A DNA stretch of 64,000 nucleotides, from positions 128,001-192,000 of the forward strand of contig CAVRCJ010000005.1 in NCBI GenBank assembly GCA_963719515.1, written 5' to 3'. A program made the position numbers. The stretch comes from an uncultured cyanobacterium. GTDB lineage: Bacteria > Cyanobacteriota > Cyanobacteriia > CAKZMO01. The stretch's first letter is position 1, and every line of letters starts with the position of its first letter. Below, piece by piece: positions 42,001 to 48,000 of this stretch.

Positions 42001-45000
42001 CGCCTATGACGCTGCTCTCAACATCAAGCCGGACAAACACGGGGCGCTTAACAACAAAGGAAATGCGCTAGCTAATCTAGAACAATACGAGGCGGCGATC
42101 GCCTCCTATGACGCTGCTCTCAACATCAAGCCAGACCTCCACAAGGCGCTCAACAACAAAGGAAATGCGCATATGACCTAGAGCGATACGAGGAGGCGAT
42201 CGCCGCCTATGACGCCGCCCTCAACATCAAGCCGGACACGAGGCGCTCAACAACAAAGGAATTGCGCTAGGGAATCTAGAACGATACGAGGAGGCGATCG
42301 CCGCCTATGACGCCGCCCTCATCATCAAGCCGGACAAACACGATGTGCTCTACAACAAAGCCTGCTGCTACGGACTACAGGGTCAAGTAGACTCAGCCCT
42401 CCTCTGGCTAGAAAAAGCGATCGCCCTCGACTCTGAATATCGCACTATGGCTTCAGCTGACAGCGACTTTGACTCTATTCGAGACAACAAGCGCTTTCAG
42501 CAACTGCTCCATGCCACCCAAAGCAACGGGAGCGATCGCTGAGCAGCCCCAAAGCGATCGCCTCATAAAATTTTTTGTACTACCCTTGCGGCAGCTGACC
42601 CAATGCGATAAAGTCACTTCTTGAGAGCTGCATCCCGCAGCTTGGCTCCCAAGACTTTGGTCAGCGGAGACGACCGTCAGTAGCAATGGCGATCGCCTCC
42701 TAACCCCCTCGACAGACAATCCCTGTCTCGGCGGCTACGGGCATTATCCCGTGCCATCCCGAAACACGTCACGTCTAGGGATGGCCAAACCTTGGGTTTT
42801 CTGCCCAATTCACAACAGAGAACCCCAAAAATGACAATTCAATATCGCCCGTCGTCCCTTCCCCAAGAAGAGGCGGCACAGAGCCCAATGCCTTGCGAGC
42901 AGGAAAGCATCCCCAAAAGCCCACCCTCGTACGGGCAGGTTTTGCCGACAAGTTTTAACGGTGACCGTACCCATTTACGCCAAACCGGCCCCGATACCTT
43001 ATCGGCAGCCTCCGGCAGCGACCACAGCCGCCCCCGCGAAACCAACCCAGACATTGAGCCAAACACCGAAAGCATTCTAAACCTCAGCGCCCCCCACCCC
43101 AGCTCAGGCGACGACTACCTGCACCACATCCTCATCGGCTCCCCCAAAGCCGTCCAAGACACCATCAAGCTGCTGCACGTCTTGCGCTACGTCGAAGGGC
43201 GACTCTGGACGCCGCTGATTGCCATCCGCGAACAGGGTCTCCGCATCACCCCCAACGAGGGCGAGGTGTTGAGCTACCTGGTGCGACAGCATCTGAAGCG
43301 GCAATAGCCACGGCAAAGGTCACCTCTAAAACCGCGTAGAGCGCGCAAAAAATTCCCCTCCAGCGCGGGCGATCGCCTTGGAGGGCGTTTGAAAAGTAAG
43401 GCCTTACGCTCTGGCTTCACCCCCCTTAGTCCCCCCTTGGCAAGGGGGGAAACCGCAGTTCTCCCCCTTGAGCTTTGGCGTTAGCCTGCCCGCAGGGCGT
43501 AGGGGAGTTAGAGGGGGTAATGCAGAACTTCTGCTACTTTTCAAACAGCCTCTTACGAGTGCTGTCGCGCTGAAGGGGGAAAAAGGGAGCCGAAAAGTCA
43601 AGCTTTGTATGTGTTTGGCGCAATCCTGGCCCTCTCCCCCGGCCTCTCTCCCAAACTTGATACCACTGGCGAAATATTTCGTAATCGAGCTGCACGCTTC
43701 GAGGCCCCCTAACCCCCAATTCTGGGGGAACCGGAGCAGTGGCCGTACTATTCGCGGCTATTGACTTTAAGGAGTTCTAACCTCTCTGAAGTCCCCCAGA
43801 ATTGGGGGATTGAGGGGGCCTTCTCCGGGGCAGGAAATAGCCGAGATGTAACAAGATATAAAATTCGCCAGCGGTATCAGAATTGGGGGAAGGGCTAGGG
43901 ATGGGGGCTTCCCAGGACGCTAAACACGTACCCCAAACTTGGGAGAGGGGAGTCTGGTTCCCTTCGCTCAGCATTGGGGGAAGGGCAGGGATGGGGCCTC
44001 CAGGACGCTAAACTCATACCAAGCTTTGCGGCGATGCGGTTCTACTTAATAAACAGCATCTCCTGATAGGTCGGCAGCGGCCAGAAGCTATCGGCCATCA
44101 CCCCCTCCAGCGCGTCCACATAGCCCCGCAGCTCATCCATCAGCCCCCGCAGGGTCTTGGCGCAGTACTGCATGTGCTCCTCAGTAGAGGCAAAGTCGTG
44201 CTTCTCCAGCGCCGCTTCTAAGTTGTCCGCCGCCTTCACCATGCCGTTGGTCAGCTCGGCCACCTTCTTGGCGCTCTCCGCCTCCAGGTCAATGCCCAGC
44301 CCAGTGAGGCTAGCAATGGTGGAAGACAGCTTAGAGAGATACTCAACAGCCGCCGGATATACCGTGGTCTTAGCCAGGCTCACCGCCAGCTTCGACTCTA
44401 CCTCAATGGACAGGATGTACTGCTCGGCGTACACCTCAAACCGGCTTTCCAGCTCAACCGGCGTCAGCACCCCGGTTTTCTCAAACAGGTCTTGGACCGA
44501 CTCTGACTTGAGTGACGGCAGTGCATCTGCGGTGGTGGGCAGGTTCGCTAGGCCGCGCTCCTCCACCGCCATCTTGTGCCACTCTTCCGAGTAGCCGTTG
44601 CCGCCAAACACCACGACGCCGTGCTCGTCCATCACCTCTTTGAGCACGGTAGAAATCGCCGCGTTCAGATCCGCGCCGCCCGATAGCTCGTTCTCTAACC
44701 GGTTGCCGACCCAGTCCAGGGAGTCAGCCAGCATCGTGTTGAGCACGATTAGGGGACCGGAGACCGACTGGCTGGAGCCGACGGCCCGGAACTCAAAGCG
44801 GTTGCCCGTGAAGGCAAACGGCGAGGTGCGGTTGCGATCGCCCGCGTCTTTGCTGAGGGGCGGCAGCACGTCCACGCCCAGATCCATAACGCCCTTCTGC
44901 TTGGAGCCGCTGAGGTTGCCTGCCTTAATCTGGTCAAACACCTCTTCGAGCTGGGTGCCCAGGTAGACCGACATAATGGCGGGTGGGGCCTCGTTCGCGC

Positions 45001-48000
45001 CCAGCCGGTGGTCATTGCTCGCGGTGGCGATCGCCGCCCGCATCAGGGGTCCATACTTGTGGACGCCGCGAATTACCGCGCCGCAGAACACTAAGAACTG
45101 AGCGTTTTCGTGGGGAGAATCGCCGGGGTCTAGCAGGTTGCCCTGGGTGGCGTTGCCCACCGACCAGTTGACGTGCTTACCGGAGCCATTGATGCCCGCA
45201 AACGGCTTCTCGTGCAGCAGACACATGAAGCCGTGCTTTTTGGCCGTCTGGCGCAGCACCGTCATCATCATCTGCTGGTGGTCGCTGGCGACGTTGGCCG
45301 CTTCGAAGTAAGGCGCGATTTCAAACTGACCAGGGGCCACCTCGTTGTGCCGAGTCTTGGCGGGGATGCCCAGCTTGTAGAGGGTCTCCTCCACGTCCTG
45401 CATAAACACCTGAACCCGCTCAGGAATGGCCCCAAAATAGTGGTCGTCGAACTCCTGTCCTTTAGCGGGAGGCTTACCGAATAGAGTACGACCGGCCAGC
45501 AGCAGGTCGGGGCGCTGGGTCGCAAAGTTGGCGTCTACCAAGAAATATTCTTGCTCAGCGCCGCAGCTGGAATTCACGTGGGCGACATTGGTGTGGCCCA
45601 ACAGCTTCAGTACCTTATTGGCGGCTTTGTCCATCGCCGCAATGGAGCGCAGCAGCGGCACCTTTTTGTCTAGCGCTTCACCTGTCCAAGAGATAAACAC
45701 CGTGGGGATGCAGAGCGTTGCCCCGTTGGAGGTCTCCATGATGTATGCCGGACTGGTGACGTCCCAACCTGTGTAGCCCCTAGCCTCATAGGTGTCGCGG
45801 ATGCCGCCGTTGGGGAATGAAGAGCCGTCGGGCTCGCCCTGTACCAGCAACTTGCCCGCAAACTCAGAGATCGCGCTGCCATCGCTTTGCACCGAGATGA
45901 AGCCGTCGTGCTTCTCGGCGGTTTGGTTGGTCATTGGGTAGAAAACGTGGGCATAGTAGAGAGCGCCCTTCGACATTGCCCAGTCGCGCATCGCGTGGGC
46001 AACGGTATCCGCAATCGAGGGGTCGAGGCTCTCGCCGGACGTGATCGTCTTCTTGATTGATTTGAAAACCGCCTTGGGAAGTGTCTCCTGCATCGTCGTC
46101 AGGTTAAACACGTTCTCTGCCCAGATGTCAGCCAAGCTCGACGGCGCTTTTGCAGGCAGCGGTGGCCGGTTAACTACGTTTTGAACAGCCTGAACGCGAG
46201 CATCATATCCACTCATACTTTTTCCCCTATAGTTCAGAGTGGCTTGATGTTACTCAAAACAGGGCATCGAAATAGATAGCAGATATACCAAAGCTCAAAA
46301 ATTATCGCAAACTTCATGCGACAGCTCGCTGAAAAATGGCCCGTCCGAGCGCGACAGGTACAGCAGTGTGCTGAAGAGGGCAGGAGTTGAGGGAAGCGGC
46401 GCTACTAAAATTAAGAGGCCTAGCTATCCGCAACAAATATCCGAATTTCTCGTGTATTCAACCTTCCAGCTTGGTTCCATAAGCCTACAGATCAGAAACG
46501 CCCGCATTCAAAGCAGTTGAGGGACTAACCTCGACTTAGTGATTAATCTCACGGATTGCCGGGTTTCTACTGTGTGGAGGGCTACAAAATCCTGCAACAG
46601 CGCCGTTTTCCGCCCAGCGATCGCCCCTAGCTACGGCTGCCCCAACCGCCCGGTCGCGTAGCGGTAGTAGTGCCACATCAAATGCGCCACCACGCCCCGG
46701 TAGGGCTGCAGCGGTTCACAGCGCTGACGCAGCGCTTTTGCCGAGGGGCGATCGCTTAAGCCTTTGAGCTGTTGATACGCCACTTGGATTGCCAGATCTG
46801 AGGCGGGAAAGCTGTCTAAACGCTCCAGACAAAAGAGCATAAAGATTTCGGCGGTCCAAGGGCCAATACCCTTGACCTGGGTGAGCTTGTCGATGATGGC
46901 GCTGTCATCCCACTCAGATAAATTATCTAGAGGCAGGTCGCCCGAGGCGATAAGCTCACCCAAGGCGCGGCAGGTGGCTACCTTGGTGCGGCTCAGCCCC
47001 GCCTGCCTGAGAGCCTCTTCAGGGCAAGCCAGCAGGCGCTCCGGCGTCACTGGGTCTAGCCGCGTTTCTAGCCGCGCGAAAATAGCGCGGGCGGCGTGGG
47101 CCGAGAGCTGCTGACCGGCGATAGTGCGTACTAGCGCGCTGTAGGTGACCGCCCACCGGCGCACCTGCAGCGGACCCACCTGGGCCTCCACGCGGCCAAA
47201 GTCGGGATCGAGGGCGCAGACTTTCTCAATAGCCGCCCTTAAGCGAGGGCTGGGCGGAACGAGCTCGGGCGAGGCGTCTACCATAGGATACTTTGCCCTC
47301 AAGCCTATTCGGAGATTGCCGCCTTGAGGCTGCGGCAAAAGGCCTCAATCTCTTTGAGCCCCTGCTGGGGTGAGCCTTCCGCCAGCCGCTTTACAAAGGC
47401 GCTGCCCACCACCACCGCATTGGCTCCCCATTCCATAATCTGGCGGGCCTGGTCGGGCTGCGAGATGCCAAACCCCACCGCGATGGGCTTGTCGGAGACG
47501 CTTTGCAGATCCATGAGCAAATCCTGAACCCGTGACTCTACGCGGGTGCGGACCCCCGTCACGCCGGTGACGCTCACCAAATAAATGAAGCCCTGAGACT
47601 TAGCGGCGATCGCCTCAATGCGTTCCTTGGAGCTGGTGGGGGCCACCAGCAGCGTCAGCTCTATCCCATACTGCAGTCCCGTCTGCAGCAGCGTCTCCGC
47701 CTCTTCCAGCGGTAAATCTGGCACCACCAGTCCCTTCACCCCCGCCTCTGAAATGGTCTTCAAAAAGGCGTCAACGCCCTGATTGAGGATGGGGTTGTAG
47801 TAGGTAAACAGAATAATGGGGCTCTGCATTTCGGGGCTCACCTGTCGCACCACATCGAGAACGCTACTGAGCTGGGTGCCGCGCTTAAGGGCGCGAGACG
47901 CCGCCGCCTGAATCGTGGGGCCGTCTGCCAGCGGGTCGGAGTAGGGAACCCCTAGCTCAATCACGTCCGCGCCGCTGCGATCGAGCAGCCGCAGCGCCTG

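Follow-up and report, generated by a model that had tools for sequence, protein, structure and literature searches.

A cyanobacterium lacking glutamine synthetase type I and its inactivating factors retains GlnN and a glutamine riboswitch before a DUF4278-only gene

An Elainellaceae-like filamentous cyanobacterium (hereafter G000), represented by a 5.28-Mb metagenome-assembled genome (MAG) of 21 contigs from sediment metagenomes with a completeness score of 100%, possesses a gene for a type III glutamine synthetase (GSIII, GlnN) but no glnA gene for the type I enzyme (GSI). The most probable explanation, to which we give a probability of about 85%, is that the glnN ORF encodes the GSIII that carries ammonium assimilation, that the GSI module was lost, and that the retained glutamine riboswitch governs a paralogous gene encoding only a DUF4278 domain. 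GlnN and GOGAT would then carry all ammonium assimilation in this organism, and GlnN would probably be essential. The lineage has lost the whole GSI module, namely, glnA, gifA (IF7), and gifB (IF17): clean deletions removed glnA and gifA from the positions they occupy ancestrally, and the locus of gifB has disappeared altogether; the only known job of gifA and gifB is GSI inactivation. The remaining riboswitch would never have belonged to gifB and would control a 59-aa DUF4278-only paralog, which shares the cassette of gifB (a TTGACA promoter, an NtcA box over the -10 element, a type-1 aptamer, and a conserved platform). Because of this gifB-like cassette, production of the peptide would be confined to conditions of nitrogen excess and high glutamine, and its target would be something other than GSI. 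The glnN gene and the former gifA site both lie in the window, the 64,000-nucleotide stretch of DNA that was analyzed, and their features are listed in Table 1.

Table 1. Features of the window around glnN and the former gifA site (window positions).
Feature	Position	Strand	Evidence
glnN, type III glutamine synthetase (GSIII), 724 aa	44042..46216	-	ORF with ATG start and Pfam matches
Putative NtcA-type activated glnN promoter	46247..46288	-	GTATATCTGCTATC (46275-46288) + 22 nt + TAACAT (46247-46252)
Distal NtcA-like box GTAGCCCTCCACAC	46572..46585	-	Second conserved block, about 360 nt before the glnN ATG
Histone-deacetylase-family (HDAC-like) gene, left flank of gifA site	56488..57408	-	Pfam Hist_deacetyl, 204.3 bits; 83% identity to G012 flank
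gifA (IF7) deletion scar, 288-bp spacer between HDAC-like gene and argJ	57409..57696	.	Synteny with G012
gifA promoter-region remnant including GTATAAACTTTTAT (GTA-N8-TAT)	57453..57493	+	Aligns with the region upstream of G012 gifA
argJ, right flank of gifA site	57697..58935	+	Pfam ArgJ, 492.7 bits; 92% identity to G012 ArgJ

The length of the glnN product is within the GSIII range (about 720-730 aa), and both the catalytic and the GSIII C-terminal domains are present, with Pfam matches to GSIII_N (PF12437; 242.6 bits, residues 29-191), Gln-synt_C (PF00120; 78.8 bits), and Gln-synt_C-ter (PF18318; 117.3 bits). Over residues 1-724, it shares 82-87% identity with many cyanobacterial GlnN loci, including 82% with a Synechocystis salina locus. 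Judged by its sequence, the ORF is GlnN, and ATP-dependent glutamine synthesis is the predicted activity. NtcA-activated promoters follow the consensus GTAN8TAC-N22-TAN3T, and the putative promoter of this type before glnN sits in a block from -85 to -15 relative to the ATG that is conserved with the GSI-positive congener G012 (counterpart, GTATAGCTGCTGTC-N22-TACCAT). Its second half-site in G000 is imperfect; NtcA may activate glnN through this element. The distal box has a perfect counterpart in G012, GTAGCCCTCTGTAC.

In a six-frame search of the whole genome with PF03951, no match exceeded the cut-off of 33.4, and the two sub-threshold matches (27.7 and 18.7 bits) both lay on contig C10; the same search gave a match in all 14 control genomes, and the profile is over the cut-off in 15 of the 16 other genomes of the family. 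A GlnA query from the congener G011 recovered only paralogs with at most 39% identity from G000, and three GS paralogs scored 285, 351, and 223 bits with TIGR00653, all below its cut-off of 429. The genes bordering glnA in the congeners G011 and G012 adjoin in G000, in the middle of C10 (904,777 bp), where the empty site lies between a phycobiliprotein gene and a GH57/DUF3536 gene. The 1,032-bp spacer at this ancestral site is unique in the genome and contains no trace of glnA (best tblastn E = 4.7). Both junctions were tiled, without joints or loose ends, by short contigs of four sediment-metagenome runs from one study, which are probably the MAG's own samples, so this support is not independent. 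The genome-wide survey's note had described a genome without GSI in which GlnN is the only canonical GS; the search results and the empty ancestral site bear out the first statement, the single PF12437 match in the genome together with the lack of GSI bears out the second, and its two sub-threshold scores and its family count were reproduced exactly. Its caveat that glnA might be hidden in an unassembled gap can largely be dismissed, because the flanking genes are adjacent mid-contig and the spacer holds no trace of glnA; the loss is, to a large extent, established as a real deletion, with a translocated glnA on an unbinned contig still conceivable for a MAG.

The same note proposed that GlnN had replaced GSI, which proved to be wrong because the family had GlnN ancestrally: 13 of its 17 genomes, G000 included, carry GSIII_N, and what happened is that one enzyme of two was lost. 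A ferredoxin-GOGAT-sized glutamate synthase is present in G000, and nothing scored over the cut-off for GDH. Two of the GS paralogs on C10 exceed the cut-off (469.6) of NCBIfam TIGR03105, a 435-position profile named 'type III glutamate--ammonia ligase', with 568.9 and 560.6 bits, and a third was below all cut-offs tested. Given the possible GS activity of these two GlnT-type paralogs, 'sole GS' means sole canonical GS here. It is nevertheless unlikely that they supply GS activity and deprive GlnN of its place as the only assimilatory GS, since they sit in an amine-catabolism island with a class-I amidotransferase, an Amt-family transporter, a copper amine oxidase, an Fe-ADH, and a TMAO-demethylase-like protein (DUF1989 + GCV_T), a context that presumably fits gamma-glutamyl-amine ligases such as GmaS or PuuA. 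Moreover, ORFs of similar size with matching sub-threshold PF03951 scores occur in GSI-positive relatives, so the paralogs do not represent a G000-specific replacement.

The inactivating factors are missing as well. G012 carries a 67-aa gifA in a 559-bp spacer between the same HDAC-like gene and argJ; the corresponding spacer in G000 is unique in the genome and contains no gifA-like ORF, and the gifA promoter remnant within it now has no gene downstream. In the GSI-less congener G010, only 83 aligned bases separate the HDAC-like gene from argJ on one contig. No IF7-like module was detected anywhere in G000 by tblastn, by a single-sequence search with P0005, or with profile A2, and gifB is absent, its locus gone. 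The note's observation that nothing in the genome matches GS inactivating factors in Swiss-Prot is therefore right, and it is accounted for by the deletion of gifA at its syntenic site and the loss of gifB. The co-loss of the two genes, which that note does not mention, is the clearest functional signature found here. The syntenic gifB ortholog of G010 is interrupted by two in-frame stops at precisely the point where its IF7-like module would begin; the DUF4278 part and riboswitch are kept, and the perfect NtcA box is lost. This gene is thus seen in the course of decay to a DUF4278-only ORF.

Among 401 genomes with at least 95% completeness, 12 have no PF03951 match over the cut-off. We tested 10 GSI-less cyanobacteria, comprising nine same-class genomes of these 12 plus G010: all 10 possess GlnN and none has the IF7-like module (profile A2), whereas 14 of the 16 GSI-positive controls have it. 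The pattern also holds in three contrasts within a genus (G000/G010 versus G011/G012, G097 versus G271, and G317 versus G117/G157/G175), and five of the 10 GSI-less genomes are without a same-genus control. The rule runs one way only, as inactivating factors can be missing from GSI-positive genomes too: the single-sequence search with P0005 gave no match in GSI-positive G005 (99% complete) and G009 (80% complete), and the IF7-like profile missed both GSI-positive genomes of family f18, so that the lack of inactivating factors in G253, a member of f18, is uninformative. A genus tree based on argJ and GH57 (1,075 columns) was unresolved and does not fix how often loss occurred in the genus. These comparisons also bear on whether the organism does have glnA and the gif genes and the bin or assembly simply lacks them. 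Binning can drop contigs, and G000 is a 21-contig MAG from sediment metagenomes; however, the places where glnA and gifA ancestrally sat are intact but empty and lie well inside large contigs, an artifact would have to remove three genes with linked functions from three different loci at a completeness of 100%, and the triple pattern is repeated in nine other genomes, one of them assembled in four contigs. We consider such an artifact extremely improbable.

RF01739 gave one match in G000, at C11:97261-97365(-), with 49.1 bits against a gathering threshold of 35. The match includes P1 and an intact conserved core (CGUUCA...GGAAGUA...GAAGGAACGC), and the variable hairpin contains a 51-nt insert. 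A 59-aa ORF with a DUF4278 match (57.9 bits, residues 1-56) starts 71 nt downstream, confirming the earlier report of a riboswitch before a DUF4278 gene, with both elements intact. In this protein nothing follows DUF4278; the IF7-like C-terminal module, which the literature describes as the GS-binding part of IF17, is missing, and the protein is therefore not expected to inactivate GSI anywhere. Orthologs of 57-61 aa that are likewise DUF4278-only (class A) follow riboswitches in G012, G009, G007, G013, G015, and G016, five of which are GSI-positive, and G012, G013, and G015 carry both the DUF4278-only gene and a riboswitch-controlled gifB. The riboswitch kept in G000 thus serves a separate DUF4278-only paralog and is not that of gifB. 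Because the paralog coexists with riboswitch-controlled gifB in GSI-positive relatives, the retained riboswitch does not stem from the GSI-inactivation circuit. That the peptide must act on something other than GSI follows from the absence of GSI from the cell. G000 also carries P0003, a 136-aa fusion of DUF4278 with a PirA-like part (42.9 bits on NF050139, below the cut-off of 50), which shows that DUF4278 is a shared N-terminal module.

The promoter of the 59-aa gene has a TTGACA element and a perfect NtcA box, GTAACAATAGATAC, overlapping the -10 element and lying 10 nt before the aptamer, an arrangement by which NtcA would repress transcription when nitrogen is scarce. A perfect GTAN8TAC lies 20-29 nt before the aptamer in six of the seven class-A genes, including that of G000; in the seventh, of G009, the box is at -84 because the Rfam match starts later. 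The same box precedes all three riboswitch-linked gifB genes of the family, placed as in G000 relative to the -10 element and the aptamer, and occurs once per 12.5 kb genome-wide. In the expression platform, which three species share unchanged, a downstream copy of the partner of the P1 3' strand offers that strand an alternative pairing. We infer from these elements that the riboswitch would bind glutamine and act as a translational on-switch, and that NtcA would act on the gene as a repressor. The dN/dS between G000 and G012 was 0.17 over 59 codons, a value not assignable to the G000 branch alone, suggesting that the gene is under purifying selection. The decay of gifB in G010 into a DUF4278-only ORF with its riboswitch kept raises the question of whether the 59-aa ORF is only what is left of a truncated gifB, without function. 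This is highly improbable, as full-length orthologs exist in six other genomes and coexist with intact gifB in three of them, the dN/dS is low, the promoter, NtcA box, aptamer, and platform are conserved, and the gifB remnant of G010, unlike the 59-aa gene, has lost the perfect NtcA box.

Another possibility is that the 59-aa peptide inactivates GlnN and is the agent of ammonium-triggered GSIII inactivation. The GSIII of Pseudanabaena PCC 6903 is rapidly inactivated by ammonium through a mechanism left unidentified, with protein-mediated control left open, in a 2018 review (PMC6316151). The 59-aa gene is regulated like that of a GS inactivating factor, with its NtcA box over the -10 element and glutamine aptamer, and selection appears to maintain it. 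However, only five of the 10 GlnN-only genomes keep any glutamine riboswitch and four keep one before a DUF4278 ORF; G016 (96% complete) has a class-A peptide although no GlnN was found in it; according to the literature, Prochlorococcus combines DUF4278 peptides with a lack of glnN; and the peptide has no IF7-like part. A role in GSIII inactivation is therefore possible but unsupported, and we regard it as improbable. We are equally doubtful of the broader proposal that the DUF4278 mini-protein is a GSI-independent nitrogen-excess effector, serving in GlnN-only cyanobacteria as a GSIII-inactivating factor, and that DUF4278 is a portable, self-sufficient module and not merely the stabilizing N-terminus of IF17.

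Loss of the GSI module with retention of a separate riboswitch-controlled paralog amounts to a natural experiment, in which GSI and both inactivating factors vanish together in at least three genera and, in one genome (G010), gifB is losing exactly its GS-binding module. The co-loss provides independent genomic support for IF7 and IF17 having no function beyond acting on GSI. The genome also shows that a DUF4278 match does not equal gifB, a proxy used in PMC6212724 and PMC11288750: among the best 150 DUF4278 family representatives, 15 have the IF7-like module, 21 have a PirA-like tail, and 67 are stand-alone proteins of at most 66 aa. Named candidates are now available for how ammonium switches off GSIII, a question that the 2018 review left for lack of a genome.

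GlnN-only cyanobacteria have been in print since 1998, and G000 adds another. Pseudanabaena PCC 6903 has no GS besides GlnN (Crespo et al. 1998, as cited in PMC6316151 and PMC4923085); G000 resembles it in lacking glnA and relying on an NtcA-controlled glnN (putatively so in G000), but belongs to a different, Elainellaceae-like lineage, and its genome shows the deletion sites, the gifA/gifB co-loss, and the retained riboswitch gene, whereas PCC 6903 had no public genome as of the 2018 review (PMC6316151). Synechococcus RS9917, described as having two GSIII and no GSI (PMC4923085), is likewise a sequenced GSIII-only cyanobacterium; it has two glnN copies versus one in G000 and is a picocyanobacterium, a group without IF7/IF17 anyway. 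The gifB gene of Synechocystis PCC 6803, encoding IF17, has a type-1 glutamine riboswitch (Klähn et al. 2018, PMC6212724), and the 59-aa gene of G000 shares with it the RF01739 aptamer, the NtcA-box promoter type, and the N-terminal DUF4278; its product, however, stops after DUF4278 without an IF7-like module, and the supposed target, GSI, is absent. The peptide also resembles a PirA-like protein in being small and, by its predicted regulation, NtcA-repressed and produced under nitrogen excess, but is without the PirA-like part. Marine picocyanobacteria have IF17-like DUF4278 mini-proteins, e.g., PMM1846, with type-2 riboswitches (PMC6212724, PMC6316151). The 59-aa protein is similarly short and DUF4278-only, with a glutamine riboswitch and an NtcA motif, but PMM1846-type cells combine GSI and a type-2 (DP) aptamer with no GlnN, whereas G000 combines GlnN and a type-1 aptamer with no GSI.

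Synteny at the glnA site provided the decisive test of whether type I glutamine synthetase (GSI, gene glnA) is absent from G000, the sediment-metagenome MAG under study (5,280,051 bp in 21 contigs; completeness score 100%, contamination 1.4%). In its congeners G011 and G012, glnA has a phycobiliprotein gene on one side and a GH57/DUF3536 gene on the other. In G000 the two are neighbours inside the 904,777-bp contig C10, and the 1,032-bp spacer between them, which is unique in the genome, contained neither an ORF of more than 70 aa nor any trace of glnA (best tblastn E = 4.7). 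The PF03951 profile, positive in 14 of 14 control genomes, gave only two sub-threshold matches in G000 (27.7 and 18.7 bits versus a cut-off of 33.4). GlnA of G011, used as a query, matched at no more than 39% identity and only in three paralogs on C10, which together with glnN make up the four genes matching PF00120. Short contigs of four public runs tiled both glnA-site junctions (locus L104, 2194-3908) without joints or loose ends; because these runs belong to one study and are probably G000's own samples, the tiling vouches only for the faithfulness of the assembly. The loss of GSI is real and not an assembly gap. The absence of GSI claimed in the genome-wide survey's note is thereby confirmed, and its reservation that glnA could be hidden in an unassembled gap is largely removed by the mid-contig position of the adjacent flanks and the trace-free spacer. 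As a side observation, contigs C113 and C164 of G012 carry two GH57/DUF3536 copies, which share 78% and 81% identity with the G000 protein; one of them adjoins glnA at a contig end, and the pair may reflect a strain mixture in that MAG.

In two papers, GSI is described as being inactivated by the small proteins IF7 (gifA) and IF17 (gifB), the GS-acting part of IF17 being its C-terminal, IF7-like part, and Pfam DUF4278 as spanning only the N-terminal part of IF17. A 65-aa IF7-like module from the riboswitch-linked gifB of family member G008 (query P0005) matched 13 of the 16 relatives of G000, with no match in G000, in G010 (the family's other GSI-less genome), in G009 (80% complete) or in G005. 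Searching G000 by tblastn with two full gifB proteins retrieved DUF4278 N-termini only. In G012, gifA encodes 67 aa and occupies a 559-bp spacer between a histone-deacetylase-family gene and argJ, versus 288 bp between the same genes in G000; in G010, a single contig carries both flank genes, separated by 83 unaligned bases. The 7 kb around G012 gifB had no syntenic counterpart in G000, and the loss of gifB was therefore not mapped to a site. Neither deletion spacer (glnA or gifA) carried a repeat or mobile-element footprint, and both are unique in the genome. G000 has thus lost gifA and gifB along with GSI, which the earlier survey had missed.

Locations of the features discussed in the text
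Feature	Location	Strand	Remarks
glnN (GSIII)	window 44042-46216	minus	single ORF, ATG start, 724 aa
Second block conserved with G012	window 46572-46640		about 330-390 nt 5' of glnN; NtcA-like box
Histone-deacetylase-family gene, gifA-site flank	window 56488-57408	minus	
Remnant of gifA upstream stretch	window 57453-57493		still recognisable against G012; no ORF after it
argJ, gifA-site flank	window 57697-58935	plus	
Repeat, at least 432 nt	window about 868-1300		at least 18 other places in G000
Phycobiliprotein gene, glnA-site flank	C10:378021-378576		
GH57/DUF3536 gene, glnA-site flank	C10:379608-382238		
Amine/methylamine catabolism island (L105)	C10:755000-775000		unusual for a cyanobacterium
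Glutamine riboswitch RF01739	C11:97261-97365	minus	single match in G000, 49.1 bits
P0003, DUF4278 N-terminus and PirA-like C-terminus	C15:101113-101523		136 aa
G010 gifB remnant	L120 (G010:C203) 1135-1464	minus	riboswitch and DUF4278 kept

A riboswitch-linked 95-aa ORF of G010 is the syntenic ortholog of G012 gifB, with flanking DNA 82% identical and a protein showing 61% identity across gifB residues 1-110. Two in-frame stops stand exactly at the start of the IF7-like module, no similarity extends beyond them, and the perfect NtcA box has been lost. This gene is a decay intermediate. The pattern is the decay expected for the GS-binding part after loss of the GS, and it shows one route to a DUF4278-only ORF.

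We then considered the phylum. Among 401 genomes at least 95% complete (G000 included), 389 had PF03951 above the cut-off; the other 12 were G000, eight genomes of the same class and three from other classes. Of the eight, G089, G097, G127, G273, G291 and G317 had no PF03951 match and G201 and G253 only sub-threshold ones. Coupling was assessed in the nine same-class GSI-less genomes plus G010, leaving out the three from other classes. GSIII_N was present in all ten, and profile A2, built from 13 IF7-like modules, matched none of them at E <= 0.1, although five of the GSI-less genomes have no congener control and related genomes are not independent samples. The same profile matched 14 of 16 GSI-positive genomes from ten families, both misses falling in family f18; picocyanobacteria, too, are described in the literature as lacking IF7 and IF17. 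Three same-genus contrasts all agree with coupled loss: G000 and G010 (GSI-less, without the module) against G011 and G012 (GSI-positive, with it), G097 against G271, and G317 against G117, G157 and G175. The rule runs one way only, the module being missing from some GSI-positive genomes too: G005 and G009 gave no match with the single query, nor did the two f18 genomes with the profile. G253 belongs to f18 and is therefore uninformative. Within the genus of G000, three GS configurations occur, namely GSI only (G011, 93% complete), both enzymes (G012 and G009) and GlnN only (G000 and G010, the latter 93% complete in 980 contigs). A genus tree from ArgJ and GH57 did not tell a shared loss in G000 and G010 from separate ones.

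The ORF in the window is glnN, encoding type III glutamine synthetase (GSIII), as shown by its Pfam matches to GSIII_N (242.6 bits, residues 29-191), the GS catalytic domain (78.8) and the GSIII C-terminal domain (117.3). In GTDB species genomes, 315 of 403 candidate stretches were confirmed as relatives; many of the 80 kept were cyanobacterial GlnN loci with 82-87% identity across all 724 residues, including a full-length Synechocystis salina locus (82%). Elainellaceae-labelled MAGs were the nearest named relatives of a different G000 gene. The surroundings of glnN (HhH-GPD glycosylase, trpA, SDR and TPR proteins) are ordinary and unrelated to it. A promoter-proximal block common to G000 and GSI-positive G012, in which GTATATCTGCTATC is followed after 22 nt by TAACAT, would be an imperfect NtcA-type arrangement, and comparison of the two genomes gave no sign of promoter rewiring at glnN after the loss of GSI. 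According to a review (PMC6316151), the glnN promoters of Synechocystis and Pseudanabaena sp. PCC 6903 have imperfect NtcA motifs as well. An exact GTAN8TAC scan found no site 5' of glnN in G000 and a sigma-70 scan no promoter near it; GTAN8[TA]AC was present within 400 nt in 11 of 46 glnN upstream regions, at no fixed position. In the second conserved block, the NtcA-like box is imperfect in G000, whereas G012 has a perfect one. The repeat near the start of the window occurs in about 18 copies at 98-99.5% identity and several diverged ones; it contains no ORF of at least 100 aa and therefore looks like a MITE-type element.

The retained glutamine riboswitch has an intact P1 and conserved core, with a 51-nt insert in the variable hairpin, and the 59-aa ORF (P0002; DUF4278, 57.9 bits) begins 71 nt 3' of the aptamer. 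Among 20 family riboswitch loci examined, orthologs of 57-61 aa follow riboswitches in G012, G009, G007, G013, G015 and G016; G012, G013 and G015 also have a riboswitch-controlled full-length gifB. The G000 and G012 copies show a dN/dS of 0.17 over 59 codons. That P0002 is a truncated gifB was ruled out by these orthologs, the coexistence with full gifB and the dN/dS value. The survey's note was right that riboswitch and gene are present; the riboswitch belongs to a paralog and not to the lost GSI circuit. Upstream of the aptamer, TTGACA is followed after 17 nt by the -10-like TAACAA(T). A perfect GTAACAATAGATAC, identical in G012, overlaps the -10 element and stops 10 nt short of the aptamer. 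Six of seven such DUF4278-only genes have a perfect GTAN8TAC, which we take to be an NtcA site, 20-29 nt before the aptamer; in the seventh, from G009, the box is at -84 because its Rfam hit starts later. The motif, found once per 12.5 kb in G000, stands at the same place before three of three riboswitch-linked gifB genes and a G317 DUF4278 gene, and is absent at the G010 remnant and two G097 genes. An NtcA site over the -10 element would mean repression. Repression of gifA and gifB by NtcA is stated in the PirA paper and in Klähn 2018 (PMC6212724). The 43 nt 3' of the aptamer do not differ between G000 and G012 and hardly differ in G009. When the RNA is folded for minimum free energy, the P1 3' strand GGAACGC pairs with a downstream GCGUUCC and not with its P1 partner, from which we infer a plausible switching element. 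In GSI-less G097, two of four glutamine riboswitches (L157 and L160) precede 119-125-aa ORFs that carry a DUF4278-like YRG motif at each end around an unrelated middle, and the other two precede unrelated small ORFs.

Searched against 1.84 billion cluster representatives, a profile of the 57-61-aa DUF4278-only peptides retrieved 1,075 of them at E <= 0.001. In the best 150, a ranking biased to the query type, 67 were at most 66 aa long, 34 were 67-100 aa, 47 were 101-200 aa and 2 were longer; only 15 of the 150 had an IF7-like module and 21 a P0003-like tail. The C-terminus of P0003 scored 42.9 bits against PirA (NF050139), below the cut-off of 50, and a sequence search of the PDB with P0003 returned chance matches to designed helical proteins and nothing else. 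The P0003 gene has no riboswitch; 119 nt upstream it has a perfect NtcA box, GTAAAATTGGATAC, in the same ATACAGAAA context. N-terminally extended PirA versions are mentioned in the PirA paper. The spread of lengths and tails, together with P0003, suggests that DUF4278 is an N-terminal module shared by several small, putative nitrogen-excess proteins; it most often stands alone.

Ammonium would most likely be assimilated in G000 by GlnN together with a 1,585-aa GOGAT-type ORF; no GDH was found above the cut-off. The C10 island contains three GS-like ligases, a class-I amidotransferase, an Amt-family transporter, a copper amine oxidase, an Fe-ADH, an acyl-CoA dehydrogenase, a PhyH dioxygenase and a DUF1989+GCV_T protein that resembles TMAO demethylase and scored 814 bits on NF053776 against a cut-off of 1100. 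Two of the three GS-like paralogs pass TIGR03105 (GlnT-type profile, 435 positions), and we take the paralogs to be gamma-glutamyl-amine ligases of the amine-catabolism pathway, though they may have some GS activity. With GSI absent, the target of the 59-aa peptide in G000 cannot be GSI, as the survey's note had argued. GlnN is a candidate because ammonium inactivates the GSIII of PCC 6903, by a mechanism that the review (PMC6316151) does not name. It is nevertheless an unlikely target, as only five of ten GlnN-only genomes keep a glutamine riboswitch, only four have one before a DUF4278 ORF, and G016 has the peptide with no GlnN detected; the comparative data are lukewarm. AlphaFold2, run on an alignment of 11 rows, gave a poor model of the peptide (mean pLDDT 56.8, pTM 0.22), with short hairpins only, at the YRG motifs.

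In the limited literature searched, which did not include Crespo et al. 1998, we found no report of the coupled glnA/gifA/gifB loss, of gifB decay or of DUF4278 as a module, nor of a GSIII inactivating factor. The GlnN-only configuration is already known in cyanobacteria, and the proposal that GlnN replaced GSI was not borne out. New relative to the known systems are the coupled loss documented here for glnA, gifA and gifB, the intermediate stage of gifB decay in G010 and the evidence for DUF4278 as a module rather than a gifB marker, so that a DUF4278 match should not be read as gifB.
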